From Chthoniobacterales bacterium (GTDB lineage Bacteria > Verrucomicrobiota > Verrucomicrobiia > Chthoniobacterales > JACTMZ01): 64,000 nucleotides of DNA. The notes beneath the pieces are model-generated. The model saw only the letters and a program-made list of their open reading frames with translations. It had not been told where the DNA came from and did no database searches. How positions within the stretch are numbered: position 1 is the stretch's first letter; the number at the start of each line of letters is the position of its first letter. Shown piece by piece: positions 2,804-48,548 of this stretch. The stretch spans positions 3,218 to 67,217 of the forward strand of contig JBIKLF010000003.1 of NCBI GenBank assembly GCA_044359955.1. Reading direction: 5' to 3'. A program made the position numbers and the translations under genes.

Positions 2804-4341
2804 GCAAGAAAACCAAAAAACTCACCACCGGGGTGGCCCCCTTGGCCGCACCGGCCTCGCATGCCGTGGTCGTTCCGGTGCGCGACCGCCACCTGCGTTT
2901 CAACGAGCGCTGGAACTACTCGCCCGCCCCCGAGGTCCACACCGACCTCAAAATCCAACCGCGCTACGACCTCTTCATTGGCGGCAAATTCGTCAAGCCG
3001 ACGTCCGGCAAATATTTCCCCTCGATCAATCCCGCCACCGAGCAGCAGCATGCCGAAATCGCGCGGGGGACGGCGGCCGACGTGGACAAGGCGGTCAGAG
3101 CCGCCCGCCGCGCTTACGAAAAAACCTGGGGCAAAATGTCCGGCCGCGAACGCGGCAAATACCTTTTCCGCATTGCCCGTCTCTTGCAGGAAAAGATGCG
3201 CGATCTGGCGGTCATCGAGTCCCTCGACGGCGGCAAAACCATCCGCGAGAGCCGCCATATCGACCTTCCGCTGGTTGCCGCGCATTTCTTTTACCACGCG
3301 GGTTGGGCCGACAAACTCGACTACGCATTTCCCGGACGCAAACCGCAGCCGCTCGGCGTGGCCGGTCAGATCATCCCGTGGAATTTCCCGCTGCTCATGG
3401 CCGCGTGGAAGTTGGCGCCTGCCCTGGCCTGCGGCAACACCTGCGTGCTCAAGCCGGCCGAGACGACGTCCGTCACGGCGATGCACCTGGCCGAAATCTT
3501 CGCCGAGGCCGATTTGCCCGAGGGCGTGGTCAATATTGTCACCGGTTTCGGCGAGGCCGGAGCGGCCATCGTCAATCATCCGGACATCGACAAACTCGCC
3601 TTCACCGGCTCGACCGAGGTGGGCAAGATCATCGCCAAGTCGGTGGCCGGCACGCGGAAAAAGCTGACCCTTGAGTTGGGCGGCAAGGCGGCCAACATCA
3701 TTTGCGAAGACGCCCCGATCGACCAAGCGGTCGAGGGCATCATCCAGGGCATCTACTTCAACCAAGGCCACGTTTGCTGTGCCGGTTCGCGTCTCTTCGT
3801 GCAGGAAGGTATTGTCGAACCGGTGATCCGCCGTCTGCGCGACCGGCTCCGCACCTTGCGGGTGGGCGACCCGCTGGACAAGAACACCGACATCGGGGCG
3901 ATCAACAGCCGCGAGCAGCTTGAGAAAATCAAGGAGATGGTGGCCAGCGGCAAAAAAGAAGGTGCCGAGTTGTTCCAGTCCGCGTGCAAGCTTCCCGCCA
4001 AGGGTTTTTTCTACGCGCCGAGCTTCTTCACCGGAGTGACCGATTCGCACCGCATTGCGCAGGAGGAAATTTTCGGCCCCGTTCTGAGTGTCATGACCTT
4101 CCGCACACCGGAAGAAGCTCTCGAGCGGGCCAACAACACGCCTTACGGGTTGAGTGCCGGGATCTGGACGGACAAAGGCAGCAAAGTTTTCAAGTTGGCC
4201 ACAGAATTGCGCGCCGGCGTCGTCTGGGCCGAGACCTACAACAAGTTCGACCCCGCGAGTCCCTTTGGCGGCTACAAAGAAAGCGGTTTCGGCCGTGAGG
4301 GTGGGAAGCAGGGGTTGTTGGGGTATTTGAAAATGGAGTAG
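2800..4341 (+). CDS. NAD(P)-dependent aldehyde dehydrogenase
   Basis: 513 aa. Motifs PWNFPLLMAAWK, LTLELGGKAAN and catalytic-Cys context NQGHVCCAGSR. ATGA overlap with deoC. Confidence 0.9.
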   Translation: MSKKTKKLTTGVAPLAAPASHAVVVPVRDRHLRFNERWNYSPAPEVHTDLKIQPRYDLFIGGKFVKPTSGKYFPSINPATEQQHAEIARGTAADVDKAVRAARRAYEKTWGKMSGRERGKYLFRIARLLQEKMRDLAVIESLDGGKTIRESRHIDLPLVAAHFFYHAGWADKLDYAFPGRKPQPLGVAGQIIPWNFPLLMAAWKLAPALACGNTCVLKPAETTSVTAMHLAEIFAEADLPEGVVNIVTGFGEAGAAIVNHPDIDKLAFTGSTEVGKIIAKSVAGTRKKLTLELGGKAANIICEDAPIDQAVEGIIQGIYFNQGHVCCAGSRLFVQEGIVEPVIRRLRDRLRTLRVGDPLDKNTDIGAINSREQLEKIKEMVASGKKEGAELFQSACKLPAKGFFYAPSFFTGVTDSHRIAQEEIFGPVLSVMTFRTPEEALERANNTPYGLSAGIWTDKGSKVFKLATELRAGVVWAETYNKFDPASPFGGYKESGFGREGGKQGLLGYLKME

Positions 4342-4364
4342 GGGGAGAGGGGGGGAGAAGAGAG

Positions 4365-4668
4365 GGCGGAGGGTTGAACCGGAGGCCTGCGCAAGCAGGG
4401 CGGAGATAGCCCTTGGGCAAACTTGAAGGCTGAGTGAGGTTGTAGCGGCGGTCTGTGACCGCCGGAATATGGAGGAAGAGAAAAGAAAAAAAGGCGGAGG
4501 GCTGAACCGGAGGCCTGCGCAAGCAGGGCGGAGATAGCCCTTGGGCAAACTTGAAGGCTGAGTGAGGTTGTGGCGGCGGTCTGTGACCGCCGGAGCATGG
4601 AGAAAAAAAAGAGAGGGAGAGGGCGGAGGGTTGAACCGGAGGGCTGTGCAAGCAGGGCGGAGATGGTC
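4365..4668. repeat. tandem repeat: 102-nt structured unit at 128-129 bp period (4365-4466, 4493-4594; partial third copy 4622-4668)
   Basis: Copies 1 and 2 differ at 2 of 102 nt. The unit contains CCTGC-GCAA-GCAGG (GNRA-type loop) and CGGCGGTC-TGT-GACCGCCG hairpins. Spacers are A/G-rich 26-mers. Confidence 0.85.
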
Positions 4669-4698
4669 CCTGAGCCGTATCCATGCAGTTGAAGACGT

Positions 4699-4906
4699 AA
4701 TAAAAGCGCGGCTTGGCTCGGTTTGTCCAGGGGGCACGGCCGTCCCGGCCGTGTTGTTTGATGTTGTTTGATCGTGACGGGCGGGACGCCCGTGCCCCTT
4801 GGCCACGTGCCAACGCGCTCACCAAATAGTGAGTCAACTCTCGCCCAGGCGCGCCTCTATGGCAGCGCCGGAAAGGGCGGAATGTTTTGCATGGTTACGG
4901 CTTAGG
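4699..4906. repeat. dispersed intergenic element, module B (4699-4835) plus module C (4840-4906), copy 1
   Basis: Near-identical to 16516-16642 (B) and 16817-16883 (C). B holds hairpins CACGGCC..GGCCGTG and ACGGGCG-GGA-CGCCCGT, enclosed by GGGGCACGG...CCGTGCCCC. Confidence 0.8.
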
Positions 4907-5014
4907 CAAACTTGAAAGCTGAGTGAGGGGCGGAGTCAGAGAAAGTGGCACGGGCATTGGCCCGTGAGGGGCGGTCGTCATCGGCAGGATGCCGATGCCA
5001 CTTTAAGATTCCGT

Positions 5015-5137
5015 ATGGCTGCCTCGCATGGATTGGTCGCCGGGGCGACCTTTCCTGGGGTGGCTTCGCTTGTCGAGGGTTCGAGTTCGCCATGCTGTGG
5101 ATGGCTGCCTCGCATGGATTGATCGCCTGTGGCGATC
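5015..5137 (-). repeat. two decoy copies of the tRNA-Gln 3' end (5015-5034, 5101-5120), each abutted by a hairpin (5035-5050, 5121-5137)
   Basis: ATGGCTGCCTCGCATGGATT occurs three times at 85-86 bp spacing; the third copy (5186-5205) is the genuine tRNA end. Hairpins are GGTCGCC-GG-GGCGACC and GATCGCC-TGT-GGCGATC. Confidence 0.85.
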
Positions 5138-5186
5138 TTTCCGAGAGTGACCGTGTATTGGAGACACGAGTCCGCCCTGCTTCGCA

Positions 5187-5260
5187 TGGCTGCCTCGCAT
5201 GGATTCGAACCATGACACACAGATCCAGAATCTGCAGTGCTACCGTTACACCACGAGGCA
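5187..5260 (-). tRNA. tRNA-Gln(CTG)
   Basis: Acceptor TGCCTCG/CGAGGCA (U1:A72, G73), anticodon stem GCAGA/TCTGT with loop TTCTGGA, T-arm CATGG-TTCGAAT-CCATG, encoded CCA. Confidence 0.9.
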
Positions 5261-5557: not shown

Positions 5558-6079
5558 TCATTGCTGGGCCTGCTGTTGTTGCAGCGTGTGGAGGACGGCT
5601 TCGGCGGTCTGGCGGTGGGTGAGGGTGCCGGAGTCGATGCGGACGGTGGCGGCCTCGCGGTAGAGGGGTTCGCGCTGGTGGTAGAGTTCCTCGACGGTGC
5701 GGCGGGGGTCGGCGGTTTGGAGGAGCGGGCGTTTGCTGTGTTTGACGCGCTGGTAGAGATGCTCGGGGCTGGCGTCGAGCCACACCACGGGGCCGATCTG
5801 CGGGAGGAGTTCGCGGTTTGGCGCGGAAATTATAACGCCGCCGCCGGTGGCGACGATGAGGCCGATGCGTCCGACGAGGCTTTGCAGGACCTTGGTTTCG
5901 AGGGCGCGGAAATGTTCCTCGCCGTGTTGCTTGAAAATGGCGGGGATGGATTGCCCCGCTGCCTGCGCCACAAGGGCGTCGGTATCGACGAGGGCGAAGC
6001 CGGTGAGGGACGACAAAATCCGGCCGACGCTGGATTTGCCGGATCCCATGAAACCGACGAGGACCAGATTGCGAAACAC
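5558..6079 (-). CDS. aroK: shikimate kinase
   Basis: 173 aa. Walker A GFMGSGKSS followed by LVDTDAL; typical length. Confidence 0.9.
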   Translation of the reverse strand: MFRNLVLVGFMGSGKSSVGRILSSLTGFALVDTDALVAQAAGQSIPAIFKQHGEEHFRALETKVLQSLVGRIGLIVATGGGVIISAPNRELLPQIGPVVWLDASPEHLYQRVKHSKRPLLQTADPRRTVEELYHQREPLYREAATVRIDSGTLTHRQTAEAVLHTLQQQQAQQ

Positions 6080-36037: not shown

Positions 36038-37382
36038 CATAGGCGTTAACCTAATATCTTGCATGTTGAGGTGGCGGGCCGCAGGGTGGCGGAGTGAAAA
36101 CCGACAGTCTTCCCGAGGATTGGAACATCGTGCGTGGGTGGTTGCCCGAGGAGCTCAATGCTGGCGCGCGTCAGCATGGATTCCTGCAGCGGGCTCGAGG
36201 GCTGCAGGAAGCCGAAACGTGGCTGCGGCTGTTTCTGATGCATGTCGTGGGCGGCCTCTCGCTACAGCAAACCATCGTGCGCGCCGAAGAGTTGGGGCTG
36301 GCCAAGATCAGCGCCGTGGCGCTCTTCAAACGGCTTGGCAAGGCCGAGGCTTGGCTGCGGTCTCTGTGCTCTCACCTGCTGGAAGAGCAAAGACGGCGGC
36401 TTGGACTTCACCGGTGGCCTTGGAAAAAGCGTTTGCGGGTCATCGATGCCACCACCATCCAGGAACCCGGCACCAGCGGCACCAAGCTGCGCCTGCACTA
36501 CAGCATCCAGTTGCCAACCTTGGCGTGTGACCATTACGAACTGACCGATATCCACGGCGGGGAAAAACTCGGGAGATTTTCCTTTGCCCCGGGCCAATGG
36601 GTCTTGGTGGACCGCGGTTACAGTCACAGGCGGGGTGTGGCGCACGTCTTGGACGAGGGAGCCGAAGTGGTGATGCGATGGAACGCGGCGCTCTTCCCGC
36701 TGGAAGATGAACAAGGCAAGGCGTTCAAGCCCCTGCCGTGGGTGCGCAAGTTGCCGGCGCGGCGCTCCGCGGAGATTAAGCTCTTCTTCCAGCACGACTC
36801 CCGGCGGCATGCCGTGCGGCTTTGTGCGTTGCGCAAGTCGAGGATGGCCACGGAGAGAACCTTGCGAAAAATGGCCGACAAGGCGCGGCGCAACGGGACC
36901 AAAGAGATGGACGCCACCAGCCGCAAGCTGGCTGGTTATGTGTTGATCCTGACCACCATCGACGGGCCAGAGTTGTCCACAAGCCAAGTGCTGGAAATCT
37001 ACCGCTACCGCTGGCAGATCGAGTTGTATTTCAAGAGGCTCAAGAGCCTGCTTGACGCCGGGCACATGCCCAAAAGCAACGACGCCTCGGCCAAAGGGTG
37101 GATGCAGGCCAAAATGCTTTCGGCTCTGCTGCTGGAGCGAATCATGTTGGAGGCCGGTTTTTTTTCCCCCTGGGGATACCGCCTGCCAGAAGAGCCAGTG
37201 GGCGCTACTGGTCGAGACCAGAGACTGCCTCAAGCAAATCGTCGCTCCGGGGTTGCTGCTGGGTGACTTGATCGCCGCAGGCCAGAGGCTGAAAAAGCTC
37301 TTGGCCATCCGCCGCAAGAAGCGCCCGATGCAAATGACGGGATTGGGGTGTCTTGTTGATGCTCGTTAGGTTAACGCCTATG
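36038..37382 (+). mobile_element. IS4-family insertion sequence, 1345 bp, complete ends
   Basis: Perfect 17-bp terminal inverted repeats CATAGGCGTTAACCTAA (36038-36054; reverse complement at 37366-37382). 11-bp direct target duplication GGGTGTTGGTG (36027-36037 and 37383-37393). Confidence 0.9.
36094..37266 (+). CDS. IS4-family DDE transposase
   Basis: DDE_Tnp_1-type motifs VIDATTI, VLVDRGY and YRYRWQIELYFKRLK (Y-2-R-3-E-6-K). The C-terminal tail may continue in frame +1 to 37369 (see findings). Confidence 0.85.
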   Translation: MKTDSLPEDWNIVRGWLPEELNAGARQHGFLQRARGLQEAETWLRLFLMHVVGGLSLQQTIVRAEELGLAKISAVALFKRLGKAEAWLRSLCSHLLEEQRRRLGLHRWPWKKRLRVIDATTIQEPGTSGTKLRLHYSIQLPTLACDHYELTDIHGGEKLGRFSFAPGQWVLVDRGYSHRRGVAHVLDEGAEVVMRWNAALFPLEDEQGKAFKPLPWVRKLPARRSAEIKLFFQHDSRRHAVRLCALRKSRMATERTLRKMADKARRNGTKEMDATSRKLAGYVLILTTIDGPELSTSQVLEIYRYRWQIELYFKRLKSLLDAGHMPKSNDASAKGWMQAKMLSALLLERIMLEAGFFSPWGYRLPEEPVGATGRDQRLPQANRRSGVAAG

Positions 37383-37653
37383 GGGTGTTGGTGGTGCCGG
37401 GTTTGGTGCGGGGCTGGTGAGCTAAAAGTTTCGCCTAAATGGCTCCACGTTTTTCGGGCTCAAGCCAATTGAAGGGGCGATCGGCCCGGGCCTGCGCAGT
37501 TATTTGGTTCAACGGAGGCCAAATTTTCGCAGCATTCGCAGCAAAGACGACTCAACTACACTCAACTTGGCTTAACTCATTGACGGTCCAGCCGGTCTTG
37601 TAAACACTTGGAAATGAAGCGTTAACAGTGTCTTTTTTGGCAGAGGCAAAAAA

Positions 37654-37741
37654 CGGTGAGGGAGGGATTCGAACCCTCGGTAGCCTTTTGGACTACGGAG
37701 CTTTAGCAAAGCTCTGCTTTCGACCACTCAGCCACCTCACC
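37654..37741 (-). tRNA. tRNA-Ser(GCT)
   Basis: Acceptor GGTGAGG/CCTCACC, anticodon stem GAGCT/AGCTC with loop TTGCTAA, long variable arm CGTAGTCCAAAAGGCTACC, T-arm GAGGG-TTCGAAT-CCCTC. CCA is not encoded. Confidence 0.9.
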
Positions 37742-37885
37742 AGAATTGAAGGGGAAAATTGCCATCGTCGGCAGGCGGCGTCAATGCCGGTTGCACAAGA
37801 AGTTGGCGTTGCGCCCTCCGCGGAGGACAAAGGCAGGGGTGCCCGAGGCCAAAGGAAGAAGGCGACGCAGGAGTGGAGGGGGTGC

Positions 37886-40076: not shown

Positions 40077-41561
40077 ATGGGAGTGAGGTCCGAGAGCAAA
40101 AGCAGCGCAGGATGGAAATTCGACAATTCGTATGCGCGGTTGCCCTCGGCGCTTTGGTCGGCCGTTGCCCCGGTGGCGGTGGCTAAGCCGGGGCTCGCGC
40201 TGCTCAATGAGGTCTTGGCGCGCGATCTCGGTCTGGATCCCGGAGCTTTGCAGGAGGTGGGGGCGGAAATTTTTTCCGGCAACCGCGTGCCCGAGGGAGC
40301 GGAGCCTATCGCGCAGGCTTATGCGGGCCACCAGTTCGGGCATTTTACCAATTTGGGTGACGGACGTGCCATTTTGCTCGGTGAGCAGGTCACGCCGGGT
40401 GGCGCGCGGTTTGATGTGCAGCTGAAAGGGGCGGGGCGGACGCCGTATTCGCGGCGGGGTGACGGACGGGCCGCGCTCGGTCCGATGCTCCGCGAATACG
40501 TGATGAGTGAAGCGATGCATGCCTTGGGGATTCCGACCACGCGCAGTCTGGCCGTGGCGACCACGGGCGAAGAGGTTGCGCGGGAGGAGTTGCTGCCCGG
40601 GGCGGTTTTGACCCGGATTGCTTCGAGCCATATCCGCGTGGGAACGTTCGAATACGCCGCCGCTTTGGGCGATCGCGCGCTGCTCCAGGCGTTGGTTGAT
40701 TACACCTTGAAGCGGCATTATGCGGACTCGCTGATCGCGGAGAACCGGGCATTGGCTCTGCTCGAAGGTGTGCTCGAGCGGCAGGCAAAACTGGTCGCGC
40801 AGTGGGCGGGTGTGGGTTTCGTGCATGGCGTGATGAACACGGACAACATGGCCTTGAGCGGAGAGACGATTGATTATGGTCCGTGTGCTTTTCTGGACGC
40901 CTATGATCCGGCAACGGTGTTCAGCTCGATCGACCGCGGTGGGCGTTATGCCTTCGGAAATCAGCCGAGTATGGCCCACTGGAATCTCGCCCGATTGGCC
41001 GAGGCGCTGGTGCCGTTGCTGCACGAGGACCAGGCCAAGTCGGTCGGCATAGCCGAAGAAGCGCTGGACCGTTTTCCGGAACGCTTTGCCTATTTTTATG
41101 CGGGCGTGCTGCGGGGGAAGTTGGGCTTGGTGAGCGAGGAGGAGGGGGATTTGGACTTGGCGAAGGAGTTGCTGGCGTGGATGACGCGGACCGGTGCGGA
41201 TTTCACGAACACGTTTGCGGCGTTGACGCGCGGGGTTGAGGCGGGATGGTGGGATGAAGGCGCGGTCCCGGTCGGCGGGGAGTTCGGCGCGTGGCGGACG
41301 AAATGGAGGGCGCGTTTGGGGCGTCAGCAAGCGGAGAAGACGGAAGTCATGGCCCTGATGCGGTCAGCCAATCCGGTGGTTATTCCGCGCAATCATCGTG
41401 TGGAGGAGGCTCTGGCTGCCGTGGTCGCAGGAGATTTTGCGGTCATGCAGCGGCTGCTCGATGTGCTGGCGCGGCCGTATGAGGAGACGGAGGAGAACAA
41501 GGCTTACCGCACGTCGCCAGAGCCAAGCACAGAGCCTTACCGGACGTTTTGTGGGACGTGA
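40077..41561 (+). CDS. selO: protein adenylyltransferase SelO (YdiU/UPF0061)
   Basis: 494 aa. YAGHQFGHF, LGDGRAILLGE, LKGAGRTPYSR and GVMNTDNMALSGETIDYGP motifs. Confidence 0.9.
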   Translation: MGVRSESKSSAGWKFDNSYARLPSALWSAVAPVAVAKPGLALLNEVLARDLGLDPGALQEVGAEIFSGNRVPEGAEPIAQAYAGHQFGHFTNLGDGRAILLGEQVTPGGARFDVQLKGAGRTPYSRRGDGRAALGPMLREYVMSEAMHALGIPTTRSLAVATTGEEVAREELLPGAVLTRIASSHIRVGTFEYAAALGDRALLQALVDYTLKRHYADSLIAENRALALLEGVLERQAKLVAQWAGVGFVHGVMNTDNMALSGETIDYGPCAFLDAYDPATVFSSIDRGGRYAFGNQPSMAHWNLARLAEALVPLLHEDQAKSVGIAEEALDRFPERFAYFYAGVLRGKLGLVSEEEGDLDLAKELLAWMTRTGADFTNTFAALTRGVEAGWWDEGAVPVGGEFGAWRTKWRARLGRQQAEKTEVMALMRSANPVVIPRNHRVEEALAAVVAGDFAVMQRLLDVLARPYEETEENKAYRTSPEPSTEPYRTFCGT

Positions 41562-41610
41562 GAGGGAGAGGGCGGAGACGAGATAAAAAAGGGCGGAGAC
41601 GAAAAAGAAA

Positions 41611-41640
41611 GGGCGGAGACTTGAGTTTGAAACTTGAGTG
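41611..41640 (+). repeat. 30-nt direct repeat, second copy, preceded by two extra GGGCGGAGAC motifs (41571-41580, 41591-41600)
   Basis: GGGCGGAGACTTGAGTTTGAAACTTGAGTG, followed by the perfect palindrome ATTTCAAATTTGAAAT. Confidence 0.8.
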
Positions 41641-41728
41641 GATGGGGGAGGCGGAGCGGGGCGAGGGATTTCAAATTTGAAATTTGAGATTTCAGAGGGG
41701 ATGGCGCGGGTGTAGGTTGGATTGATGA

Positions 41729-41820
41729 GGAAGGGTGGCTGAGTCCGGTTTAAGGCACTCGACTCGAAATCGAGCGTGGGGTTAAACCCACCGTGGGTTC
41801 GAATCCCACCCCTTCCGCCA
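41729..41820 (+). tRNA. tRNA-Ser(CGA)
   Basis: Acceptor GGAAGGG/CCCTTCC, anticodon stem CTCGA/TCGAG with loop CTCGAAA, long variable arm CGTGGGGTTAAACCCACC, T-arm GTGGG-TTCGAAT-CCCAC, G73, encoded CCA. Confidence 0.9.
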
Positions 41821-42025
41821 ATCCGCCGCAGGCGGCTTGAAACATCCCGGTGGGATGAAGAACGCAGTTCGAGCCGGAGACAGGTCGCCGGAGGCGACCA
41901 ATCCCACCCCTTCCGCCAATCCGCCGCAGGCGGCTTGAAACATCCCGGTGGGATGAAGAACGCAGTTCGAGCCGGAGACAGGTCGCCGGAGGCGACCAAT
42001 CCCACCCCTTCCGCCAATCCGCCGC
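41821..42025 (+). repeat. two perfect 98-bp tandem units plus a 28-nt partial third, each re-creating the last 19 nt of tRNA-Ser(CGA)
   Basis: AATCCCACCCCTTCCGCCA occurs at 41802-41820 (genuine), 41900-41918 and 41998-42016. Spacers 41821-41899 and 41919-41997 are identical. Confidence 0.9.
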
Positions 42026-42109: not shown

Positions 42110-42964
42110 TCAGGCGCGGCGGCCGAACCACCAGATCATCAGGCCTCCGCTGAGGAACATGAAGAGGCTGTAGACGACCGAGGGCATGGCGATGCTGGCG
42201 TTTTCGAGCAGGCCGAGAGTGATGGCGAGGGCGAGGGTGCCGTTCTGGATGCCGGTTTCGACCGCGATGGTGACTTTTTGTGCGCGGGGCAGTCCGGCGG
42301 CCCAGCCGGCGCCGAAGCCGAGGATCATGGCGGCAAGGTTGAGAGTGATGGCGGCGGGACCGGCGGTGGCGAATTGGTGGGCAAGGTCTTTTTCCCGCAG
42401 CACGGCTGCAGCAATGATGAGGGCGAGGAAGACGAGCGAAAAGATGGCGGCCGGACGTTCCAATCGCTGCGCGAGGAGAGGAAAGGCCGAGCGGACACCC
42501 ATGCCGCAGACGATGGGCACGATGGTGACCAGCGTGAGCTGGCCGAGCGTTTTCCAGAAGGGCAATTGCACTGCGGCGCCGCTGCCGAGAAACCAGTCCA
42601 TGGAAAAAGCGACAATCCACGGGATGGTAAAGACGCACACCATGCTCGAAATGGCGGTCAGGGTGACGGAGAGGGCGGTGTCACCCTTGGCCAGGTGCGT
42701 GATGACGTTTGAAGTAGAGCCGCCCGGGCAGGCGGCGAGAATCATCAGCCCGACCGCCAGTTCACCGGGCAGACGGAAGGCGAGGGCCAGCACGAAGGCG
42801 ATGAGCGGCAGCATGACAAGCTGGCAGGTCAGGCCGACGATTTTCGCTTTGGGAGAGAGAATAACGCGGCGGAAATCCGCCGGCACCAAACTCAGCCCCA
42901 TGCCGAAGAGCACGGCAAAGAGGGCCAGAGGCAAAGCCAGTTGCTTCAGGAGGTCAGGCGGCAT
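42110..42964 (-). CDS. bile acid:sodium symporter (BASS) family transporter
   Basis: 284 aa. FGMGLSL and AACPGGSTSNV motifs. Confidence 0.85.
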   Translation of the reverse strand: MPPDLLKQLALPLALFAVLFGMGLSLVPADFRRVILSPKAKIVGLTCQLVMLPLIAFVLALAFRLPGELAVGLMILAACPGGSTSNVITHLAKGDTALSVTLTAISSMVCVFTIPWIVAFSMDWFLGSGAAVQLPFWKTLGQLTLVTIVPIVCGMGVRSAFPLLAQRLERPAAIFSLVFLALIIAAAVLREKDLAHQFATAGPAAITLNLAAMILGFGAGWAAGLPRAQKVTIAVETGIQNGTLALAITLGLLENASIAMPSVVYSLFMFLSGGLMIWWFGRRA

Positions 42965-48410: not shown

Positions 48411-48482
48411 GGGTTGGTAGCTCAATGGTAGAGCAGCGCCCTTTTAAGGCGTTGGTTGTGGGTTCGAGTCCCACCCGACCCA
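48411..48482 (+). tRNA. tRNA-Lys(TTT)
   Basis: Acceptor GGGTTGG/CCGACCC, anticodon stem GCGCC/GGCGT with loop CTTTTAA, T-arm GTGGG-TTCGAGT-CCCAC, A73. CCA is not encoded. Confidence 0.9.
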
Positions 48483-48548
48483 CTCGCTTTATGACGCGCT
48501 GAATAGTCTGCGGTGATCTCCGGGGCCCGCGGAGCTTCCGTTGATGTT

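Follow-up and report, generated by a model that had tools for sequence, protein, structure and literature searches.

What is a transfer RNA (tRNA) gene doing with further copies of its own 3' end, strung out directly behind it and each set against a small hairpin? The question arises at tRNA-Ser(CGA) in a 64,000-nt stretch of a Chthoniobacterales genome (assembly GCA_044359955.1, contig JBIKLF010000003.1, positions 3,218 to 67,217; this whole stretch is hereafter the window), where the gene is followed by two 98-nt tandem units, and it arises again at tRNA-Gln(CTG) of the same window. We regard these repeats as probable co-transcribed RNA modules of the kind known from Escherichia coli as tRNA-linked repeats (TLRs), each of which would use its tRNA-like 3' end as its own processing signal.

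The segment copied in each Ser unit corresponds to nucleotides 41802-41820 of the tRNA gene, from A58 to A76 (19 nt); the sequence AATCCCACCCCTTCCGCCA is found there and again as the tail of both units, and the two 79-nt spacers in front of these tails are identical (Table 1). Tandem Repeats Finder (TRF) reports the array at 41802-42025 with a period of 98, 2.3 copies as assembled, 100% matches and a score of 448. As the first 9 nt of the spacer recur after the last tail, the direct repeat in fact measures 28 nt, made up of the tail and these 9 nt. An earlier note on this DNA, made from the letters alone, had described the 98-bp units, the tail copies, the 79-nt spacers and the 9-nt recurrence correctly, as well as three hairpins, the last of which (GGTCGCC-GGA-GGCGACC) abuts A58; the break in the T-loop that it claimed lies exactly between positions 57 and 58. 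Its range for a Gln counterpart (5015-5205) was roughly right, and is refined here to units at 5016-5186 behind a tRNA gene at 5187-5260 on the minus strand. The spacers of the two Gln units have diverged from each other, unlike the identical Ser spacers.

In all four units of the window the tail equals the tRNA 3' end at 19 of 19 nt, and both the Ser and the Gln units begin 1 nt past the CCA of the tRNA and lie on its strand. The pattern TCGCC-N2-4-GGCGAYC-AATCC has four matches in the window, every one of them in a unit tail, where shuffled sequences lead to an expectation of 0.00. The unit lengths (85, 86, and 98 nt) are not multiples of three, and the units are thus non-protein-coding. Neither a promoter nor an intrinsic terminator was predicted between tRNA and units at the Ser or the Gln locus.

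Table 1. Features of the two repeat-bearing tRNA loci (positions in the window; hp, hairpin; R1, covariance model built on Chthoniobacterales units).
Feature	Position	Strand	Basis
tRNA-Ser(CGA), CCA encoded	41729..41820	+	ARAGORN; Rfam tRNA, 55.7 bits
TLR-type unit 1 (Ser), 98 nt: 79-nt spacer plus 19-nt tail at 41900-41918	41821..41918	+	TRF; sequence; model R1, 115.3 bits
TLR-type unit 2 (Ser), same as unit 1; tail at 41998-42016	41919..42016	+	TRF, 100% matches; R1, 115.3 bits
Array boundary ATCCGCCGC: first 9 nt of the spacer again, then unique DNA	42017..42025	+	sequence
hp1, CCGCC-GCA-GGCGG, just past CCA	41823..41835; also 41921-41933	+	RNAalifold; pair counts
Predicted stem-a, 5' strand GGTGGGAT, complementary to ATCCCACC of the tail (41901-41908)	41849..41856	+	RNAalifold; covariation
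Predicted stem-a in unit 2	41947-41954, pairing with 41999-42006	+	
Local hairpin CATCCC-GGT-GGGATG, possible alternative fold to stem-a	41843-41857	+	earlier note; pair counts
Small hairpin GAAC-GCA-GTTC	41860..41870; also 41958-41968	+	sits in near-invariant block GGGATGA(A)GAACGCAGTTCGAGCCG
hp3, GGTCGCC-GGA-GGCGACC	41883..41899; also 41981-41997	+	abuts A58 of the tail
tRNA-Gln(CTG), CCA encoded	5187..5260	-	ARAGORN; Rfam
Gln-type unit 1, 85 nt: spacer, hp3 GATCGCC-ACA-GGCGATC (5121-5137), tail (5102-5120)	5102..5186	-	sequence
Gln-type unit 2, 86 nt: spacer, hp3 GGTCGCC-CC-GGCGACC (5035-5050), tail (5016-5034)	5016..5101	-	sequence

The arrangement is not peculiar to this genome. A scan of bacteria and archaea, one genome per species, for TCGCC-N2-4-GGCGAYC-AATCC-N11-CCA returned 100 loci, 28 of them from 17 genomes labelled Chthoniobacterales, Chthoniobacter, or Verrucomicrobia. 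At 23 of these 28 a tRNA stands on the same strand 43-484 nt upstream of the motif and has a 3' end identical to the tail; the hosts are Ser-CGA, Ser-GGA, Ser-TGA, Ser-GCT, Gln-CTG, and Asn-GTT. In the same set of loci, tRNA-Glu(TTC) of L100 also has a tail, behind a variant hairpin. A tRNA-linked motif was found at none of the 72 scan loci from other phyla, and the seven tRNAs that occur in non-Verrucomicrobial loci have no downstream copies, a sample too small to mean much. The Gln locus, which the earlier note had cited against a one-off duplication, does rule one out.

The number of units per locus ranges from one to seven (seven at L056, a Gln locus; four at L064, behind tRNA-Ser(CGA); three at L039, behind tRNA-Asn; two at each locus of the window). 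Families of units can be told apart by tRNA type, with lengths of 97-105 nt (Ser), 85-90 nt (Gln), and about 93 nt (Asn). The stem sequence of hp3 is common to the Ser-, Gln- and Asn-type units; otherwise, the Gln and Asn types share just their architecture with the Ser type. The junction falls exactly at T-loop 57|58 in every unit and at every tRNA.

Variants of the design occur among the related loci. Short-form units of 72-75 nt are present in L040 (6249-6412, minus strand), L064 (7329-7495, plus strand), and L068 (4869-5034, minus strand), and in those of L064 and L068 GGCGAAGCC stands in place of the usual last hairpin. At L040 and L064 (Ser-GCT loci) and at L068 the tRNA gene ends in ...CCG TTT or ...CCG TTC, without CCA, and the downstream copy has CCA; this fits an insertion that brings a CCA-less replacement end or, equally, selection for CCA on the copy. 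Chimeric tails (AATCCCACC|TCAGGAGCCA), with a Ser-like start and an Asn-like end, occur on the minus strand of L011 (3155-3340 and 4080-4401) behind both tRNA-Ser(TGA) and tRNA-Asn, about 1 kb apart, which suggests recombination between unit types.

The Ser units can be followed at orthologous positions. The gene upstream of the Ser array encodes SelO (40077-41561, plus strand), and the synteny of SelO and tRNA-Ser(CGA) is retained in five genomes in which the SelO protein is 65-79% identical. At these syntenic loci the spacers alone are 85-95% identical to those of the window, against 70-80% for SelO DNA, and the intergenic DNA upstream of the tRNA, at 24-54% identity, is effectively unalignable. 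The array of L041 ends at the same 9-nt boundary as the window array. As the spacers are better conserved than SelO at orthologous positions and the array boundary is shared, these alignments show the Ser units to be old, vertically inherited, and, judged from substitution levels, under purifying selection.

What is conserved includes a fold. The 17 Ser-type units, aligned with MAFFT (alignment A1) and folded with RNAalifold, give four helices: hp1, the long-range stem-a, in which [T/A]GGGAT pairs with ATCCC[A/T] of the tail, the GAAC-GCA-GTTC hairpin, and hp3. Of the cells of A1 that fall in these helices 95.5% are paired, compared with at most 52% in slid controls, and six pairs have changed on both sides against 2.4±0.9 in shuffled alignments, none of 500 shuffles reaching the observed value. 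Hairpin hp1 covaries between genomes (CTGCC/GGCAG, CTTGCC/GGCAAG), and the tail helix tracks the identity of the tRNA, being GGTGGGAT/ATCCCACC in Ser-CGA and Ser-TGA, and GAGGGAT/ATCCCTC in Ser-GGA. In the Gln-type alignment (A2) a covarying hp1 takes in the CCA of the preceding tail (GCCAUCC-GCA-GGAUGGC), two short pairings link upstream sequence and tail, one of them with five U·G pairs, and the variable position of hp3 is A-U in eight units, G-C in seven and G·U in three.

The 44 units compared for hp3 contain 268 Watson-Crick pairs, seven G·U pairs, and one A·C pair; at the single stem position not fixed by the search pattern there are four G·U pairs and no A·C, and the loop is hypervariable, with a length of 2-4 nt. 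This sense-strand bias towards G·U, together with the variable loop length, favours a folded single sense strand, most simply a transcript, over a duplex palindrome bound by a protein. The local hairpin CATCCC-GGT-GGGATG of the earlier note was considered as the main fold and set aside: its positions pair in 86% of cases, U·G pairs being frequent and double compensations absent, and it competes with the better-supported tail pairing, as its 3' strand GGGATG is the GGGAT core of stem-a (41852-41856) plus G41857. It is possible as an alternative fold.

The closest known counterparts are the TLRs, a precedent that the earlier note did not recognize. These repeats were first described at E. coli tyrT in 1978, and a study from 2021 states that they "have no known function" (PMC8144298). 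E. coli K-12 has 22 TLRs in its tRNA or rRNA operons; they are spread over ten loci with one to five copies each, and their hallmark is a 3'-terminal 18-19 bp identical to the 3' end of the gene directly upstream (PMC8144298). The window loci agree with the class in the position and orientation of the units, in the 19-nt tail identity, and in the presence of one to a few tandem copies.

For the comparison we used the tyrT-tyrV-rttR (L103) and serV-argVYZQ (L110) operons of K-12. There as here, the units stand directly behind a same-strand tRNA, singly or in short tandem arrays; identity with the tail starts at A58 (AATCC...) and runs through CCA; an upstream segment is complementary to the tail and changes with the tRNA (GGGGAAGGAT/ATCCTTCCCC in Tyr, GGGAGGAT/ATCCTCCC in Arg); and the units are built from a number of small hairpins whose loops read GCA or GAA. 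The tyrT unit and the Ser-type units of Chthoniobacterales also have in common GGATGAGAA, GGTTCGA..CGAGCG.CAGCGAGA.AG, and a palindromic GCC-GCA-GGC hairpin (xGCC-GCA-GGCx). The two sets differ in unit length (85-105 nt here, about 115-178 nt in E. coli, where the tyrT/tyrV repeats measure 178 bp), in the last hairpin, which abuts A58 here whereas GAGT or a further module intervenes in E. coli, and in their hosts, which are Ser, Gln, Asn, and Glu tRNAs here, and Tyr, Arg, and other tRNAs in E. coli, a member of another phylum. Repeats of this kind are lacking behind the asn tRNAs, serV and glnX of E. coli, which leaves no type-for-type comparison for the Gln and Asn units.

Covariance models connect the two sets in both directions. 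The Rfam family RtT (RF00391), built on the tyrT repeat RNA, matches L070 twice with 31 bits, L068 with 33.4 bits and the window with 21.1 bits; the matches cover the units exactly and on the right strand, with E-values of 0.012-0.1 (0.012-0.045 for L070 and L068) counted over 4227 families. The RtT structure, with a closing helix between the upstream segment and tail nucleotides ~59-68 and a single-stranded NCCA, was predicted independently by RNAalifold for the units described here. Conversely, model R1, built on Chthoniobacterales units only, finds all four E. coli tyrT units (E=2.4e-5 to 1.4e-4) and gives tRNA-Tyr genes about 10 bits. When the spacers of the L068 and L070 units were aligned locally with the tyrT unit, about one in 1000 dinucleotide shuffles did equally well or better. 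True homology with the E. coli TLRs is not proven but, from these sequence comparisons, likely. Matches to the Rfam family sX4 (24-36 bits) were discarded, as they fall mostly on the tRNA-Ser part of that model, and the sX4 literature added nothing.

If the repeats are TLR-type RNA modules, the array would be read through from the tRNA promoter and transcribed together with the tRNA. The tRNA 3'-end maturation machinery would then recognize every replica of that 3' end, with an endonuclease cutting just past CCA, followed by exonuclease trimming that halts at CCA; the transcript would thereby yield the tRNA and one small stable RNA per unit, each with a tRNA-like end. The predicted fold is compatible with such an end: hp1 follows the CCA, a closing helix would form with tail nucleotides 59-66 around two inner hairpins, the last being hp3, and the 3' strand of the acceptor stem plus NCCA would be left as a free, tRNA-like 3' end. 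Among the readings offered by the earlier note was a co-transcribed mimic of the 3' end that serves in processing; it is the one that the evidence favours, and it has also been proposed for E. coli TLRs (PMC8144298). Within the class, RtT, the RNA given by one tyrT unit (rttR), and RrB have been shown to be co-transcribed and processed to discrete RNAs.

The nearest parallel for processing comes from rrA, rrB, and rrF, TLR-family small RNAs encoded behind 5S rRNA in E. coli rrnA, rrnB, and rrnD, for which the repeated 3' end has been proposed to direct processing by RNase E (PMC8144298). Like the units of the window, these RNAs are encoded in a trailer, are co-transcribed with a stable RNA gene and carry a copy (18 nt) of the 3' end upstream (PMC8144298). 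They differ in that they stand behind 5S rRNA rather than tRNA, lie between two terminators, and bind Hfq and CsrA through GGA motifs.

Several points weigh against reading the units as processed RNAs of the TLR class. The search pattern demanded hp3, AATCC, and CCA, and the related loci were thus ascertained on those features. At 21-33 bits the RtT matches do not reach the gathering score of 45 bits, for which reason we file the element under the broad TLR class and not under RF00391. The window Ser spacer by itself is not significantly similar to the tyrT unit (p=0.18), and neither are the Gln- and Asn-type spacers to the E. coli unit (p=0.17-0.82); as the window unit alone gives no significant match, its link to E. 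coli runs via the L068 and L070 intermediates and the shared architecture. Shared tRNA-derived sequence may account for some of the signal between the phyla, and R1 gives 25-27 bits to the 3' part (two-thirds) of tRNA-Ser itself. Folded one by one, the sequences yield unremarkable z-scores (-1.1 to -2.5), which do not set the sense strand apart from the antisense strand and by themselves lend no support to a structure. GNA triloops (C-GCA-G, GCGAAGC) are frequent among the small hairpins; they are also a hallmark of unusually stable hairpins of single-stranded DNA, and the units may therefore have a role at the DNA level. We infer the transcription and processing of the units, with the sense-strand G·U bias and the covariation as indirect support.

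The alternative that survives best, though we consider it unlikely, is that the units are the footprint of a mobile element that strikes the T-loop or 3' end of tRNA genes and duplicates or replaces positions 58-76, the units being selfish or exapted DNA. The element could be a non-autonomous mini-integrative element, a casposase/Cas1-like enzyme making fixed duplications, or a hairpin-guided HUH/Y1 system. Such an origin would account for the invariant 57|58 junction at every tRNA and for the occurrence of the same palindromic hairpin at this junction behind unrelated tRNAs. Core motifs are found behind Tyr and Arg tRNAs in E. coli and behind Ser and Glu tRNAs in Chthoniobacterales, that is, behind different tRNAs in two phyla, which implies a transfer of the module from one tRNA gene to another in the past. 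The chimeric tails of L011 and the CCA-less genes of L040, L064, and L068 may be counted on the same side, the latter fitting an insertion between position 73 and CCA that brings a replacement end. The same genomes, moreover, do contain a real small element that duplicates a tRNA 3' end: on the minus strand of L068 (~5590-5977), tRNA-Lys(TTT) is followed by a 313-nt insert, which encodes an 86-aa GIY-YIG domain protein (Pfam, E=6e-10), and beyond it the final ~35 nt of the tRNA are repeated.

Conservation is what speaks most directly against a mobile footprint: units that hold orthologous positions and keep 85-95% spacer identity beside a flanking gene at 70-80% are ancient and selected, unlike decaying scars. 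No copies away from tRNA tails were found in the window or in the 28 related loci, and no integrase or transposase gene was found beside the Ser or the Gln locus. The 79-nt inserts are also far below the known size of integrase substrates. The attachment (att) sites of integrative elements that target tRNAs through tyrosine integrases, tandem accretions and cis-mobilisable remnants included, do resemble the units in that a 3' segment of the tRNA is directly repeated beyond the intact gene, but the window loci have neither integrase gene nor cargo, their identity begins at A58 and not upstream of the T-loop, and their spacers are structured, 79 nt long, and conserved by vertical descent rather than polymorphic for presence and absence. 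What a true integrase junction looks like in this group can be seen at L017 (4372-5922), where a tyrosine integrase open reading frame (ORF; Phage_integrase, E=2e-14) adjoins a truncated 3' fragment of tRNA-Ser(CGA) with one unit. This is the far junction of an integrated island; identity there already begins ahead of the T-loop and takes in the 5' strand of the T-stem, unlike at the unit junction, and as the truncated fragment still carries a unit, the unit predates the integration.

An origin in phages or viruses was rejected in its own right: a motif scan of IMG/VR viral contigs gave two matches, both chance occurrences in coding-like sequence with no tRNA nearby, and BLAST of the unit against phage records gave no significant match (best E ~0.3-0.9). 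With these negative searches, the conserved orthologous units, the lack of a flanking recombinase, and the different junction at L017, the suggestion in the earlier note of a T-loop-inserting element mobilized by an integrase is not supported. Its alternative of a hairpin-guided mechanism of the IS200/IS605 or RAYT kind fares no better, given the want of dispersed copies in the window and the 28 related loci and tails that are tRNA-specific duplications. Elements of the IS200/IS605 family are not known to create target duplications.

Among known mechanisms, the closest analogue of a fixed-length duplication is casposase integration at tRNA-Pro, where 14-15 bp of the tRNA 3' end are duplicated under the guidance of a T-loop motif (PMC6614799). 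Casposon and Cas1 systems share with the window loci a fixed-length duplication of a tRNA 3' end beside a T-loop motif and a layout of repeat, spacer, and repeat. They differ in that no Cas1 or casposase gene and no terminal inverted repeats of casposon type were seen here, and in that the spacers here are identical or homologous, and conserved; E. coli, for its part, carries TLRs without casposons. A CRISPR array was discarded as an interpretation because the 'spacers' are identical (Ser) or homologous (Gln) and conserved between genomes, not unique.

We give slightly less credence again to a role of the units at the level of DNA or transcription, be it as a factor-dependent terminator, as a buffer against R-loops or replication conflicts, or as a decoy att site. 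In its favour, predictions give no canonical intrinsic terminator behind the Ser or the Gln tRNA, the hairpins combine a high GC content with GNA triloops, and integrases do target these tRNAs, as L017 attests. Kupper et al. reportedly observed in 1978 that tyrT transcription ends at a Rho-dependent site inside the repeats. Roles of this kind, however, leave unexplained why an exact copy of the tRNA end, CCA included, should be needed and why the upstream segment covaries in its pairing with the tail; the excess of G·U over A·C points to RNA, or at any rate to the sense strand in single-stranded form, and the near-invariant unpaired block GGGATGAGAACGCAGTTCGAGCCG is hard to square with hairpin stability alone.

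The reality and number of the units were considered from independent contigs. A JGI metagenome contig that is 99.987% identical across 15.65 kb carries the identical 2.3-copy array; in a second JGI contig with an identical SelO protein the intergenic gap is exactly 98 bp shorter, as judged by gap length only; and two short-read Logan contigs end within the array. That the repeats are a neutral by-product of slippage, or an assembly artefact, is very improbable and with the comparative data essentially excluded: the full identity of the Ser units fits a recent duplication or assembler behaviour, short-read contigs do break in the array and one contig apparently has one unit fewer, but the same design stands at seven tRNA species in 17 genomes and in E. 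coli, its spacers are strongly conserved with compensatory changes, a separate metagenome contig has the same array, and the Gln units are diverged, hence no assembler duplication.

Within arrays, the number of units would rise and fall through unequal recombination or slippage between the direct repeats of 19-28 nt, and the same process would keep adjacent units identical. Distal units are diverged (unit 7 of L056, unit 3 of L039, unit 2 of L063) and neighbouring units identical; this, together with the variable unit number, fits unequal recombination or slippage. As to how a unit arose, the start of the spacer (41821-41860) resembles the reverse complement of the 28-nt direct repeat (GCAGGCGGCTTG versus GCGGCGGATTG, plus GGTGGGAT). 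This resemblance, with the score of the whole unit against tRNA-Ser itself, hints that partial copies of the tRNA end, direct and inverted and nested in one another, gave rise to the units.

Some features of the surroundings may be recorded here. The Ser array is flanked downstream by a convergent gene for an SBF-family transporter (42110-42964, minus strand), and the Gln locus lies between the end of an aldehyde-dehydrogenase-like ORF on one side and the start of a new ORF on the other. Relatives of the SelO protein point to an organism of the Verrucomicrobiota. About 40 nt before tRNA-Ser(CGA), in GC-rich surroundings, an AT-rich heptamer repeat (ATTTGAA, 3.6 copies, 41668-41692) may be part of the tRNA promoter region. 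The window has five tRNA genes (669-744, 5187-5260, 37653-37742, 41729-41820, and 48411-48483); behind those for Glu-CTC, Ser-GCT, and Lys-TTT no arrangement of hairpin plus tail was found. CCA is encoded in the genes for Glu-CTC, Gln-CTG, and Ser-CGA, and not in those for Ser-GCT (which is then followed by TTTTTT) or Lys-TTT; both repeat-bearing genes are of the CCA-encoding kind. The only transposase gene nearby belongs to an ordinary DDE insertion sequence (36094-37266, plus strand; Pfam DDE_Tnp_1, E=5e-13), which lies ~4.5 kb from the Ser array and ~400 bp from tRNA-Ser(GCT) at 37653-37742, and is unrelated to the repeats.

A second, purine-rich repeat, GGGCGGAG, clusters past the stop codons of plus-strand genes at both repeat-bearing loci (4364-4935 and 41570-41618). 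The first cluster follows the aldehyde-dehydrogenase-like ORF, which ends near 4330, and has six copies, including a 128-bp tandem repeat (4365-4664; 2.3 copies, 90% matches); the second has three copies with a 20-nt period past the SelO stop codon at 41561. Across the window there are 15 copies, of which 14 lie on the plus strand, against 8.3±2.8 expected. Relative to the tRNA, the clusters are upstream at the Ser locus, and downstream and antisense at the Gln locus; because the position thus differs between the two loci, they are probably a separate element of 3' untranslated regions.

Beyond the reading of the window repeats as co-transcribed TLR-type modules, it is possible, though we hold this as a tentative and rather doubtful extension, that they belong to an ancient class of TLR RNAs that is common to Proteobacteria and Verrucomicrobia, is kept by selection, has a role in the biology of tRNA 3' ends, and has moved repeatedly between tRNA genes by copying the mature 3' end. 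The RNA would take the shape of a three-way junction closed on a replica of the T-stem 3' strand, with a free end formed by the acceptor strand and NCCA. It could act as a decoy or sponge for enzymes or toxins that work on CCA ends, or as a regulator of the processing of its own tRNA; the copies that have CCA at the three loci whose tRNA gene is without it are a possible clue.

The general kind of element, TLR and RtT, is already known. New are the phylum, the compact form of 85-98 nt, the conserved hairpin that abuts A58, the families specific to tRNA types, the evidence of purifying selection and covariation, and the CCA clue. For genome annotation, there is a risk of taking TLR arrays for integrase att sites, pseudo-tRNAs, or CRISPR-like repeats, and short-read assemblies break at them. 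For the biology of the family, the presence of the same design in a distant phylum, better conserved than a neighbouring enzyme gene and with covarying helices, indicates that the class is functional and not debris. The question touched by this cross-phylum conservation is almost 50 years old, and a minimal version of 85-98 nt with a conserved core and a defined fold opens that question to experiment.

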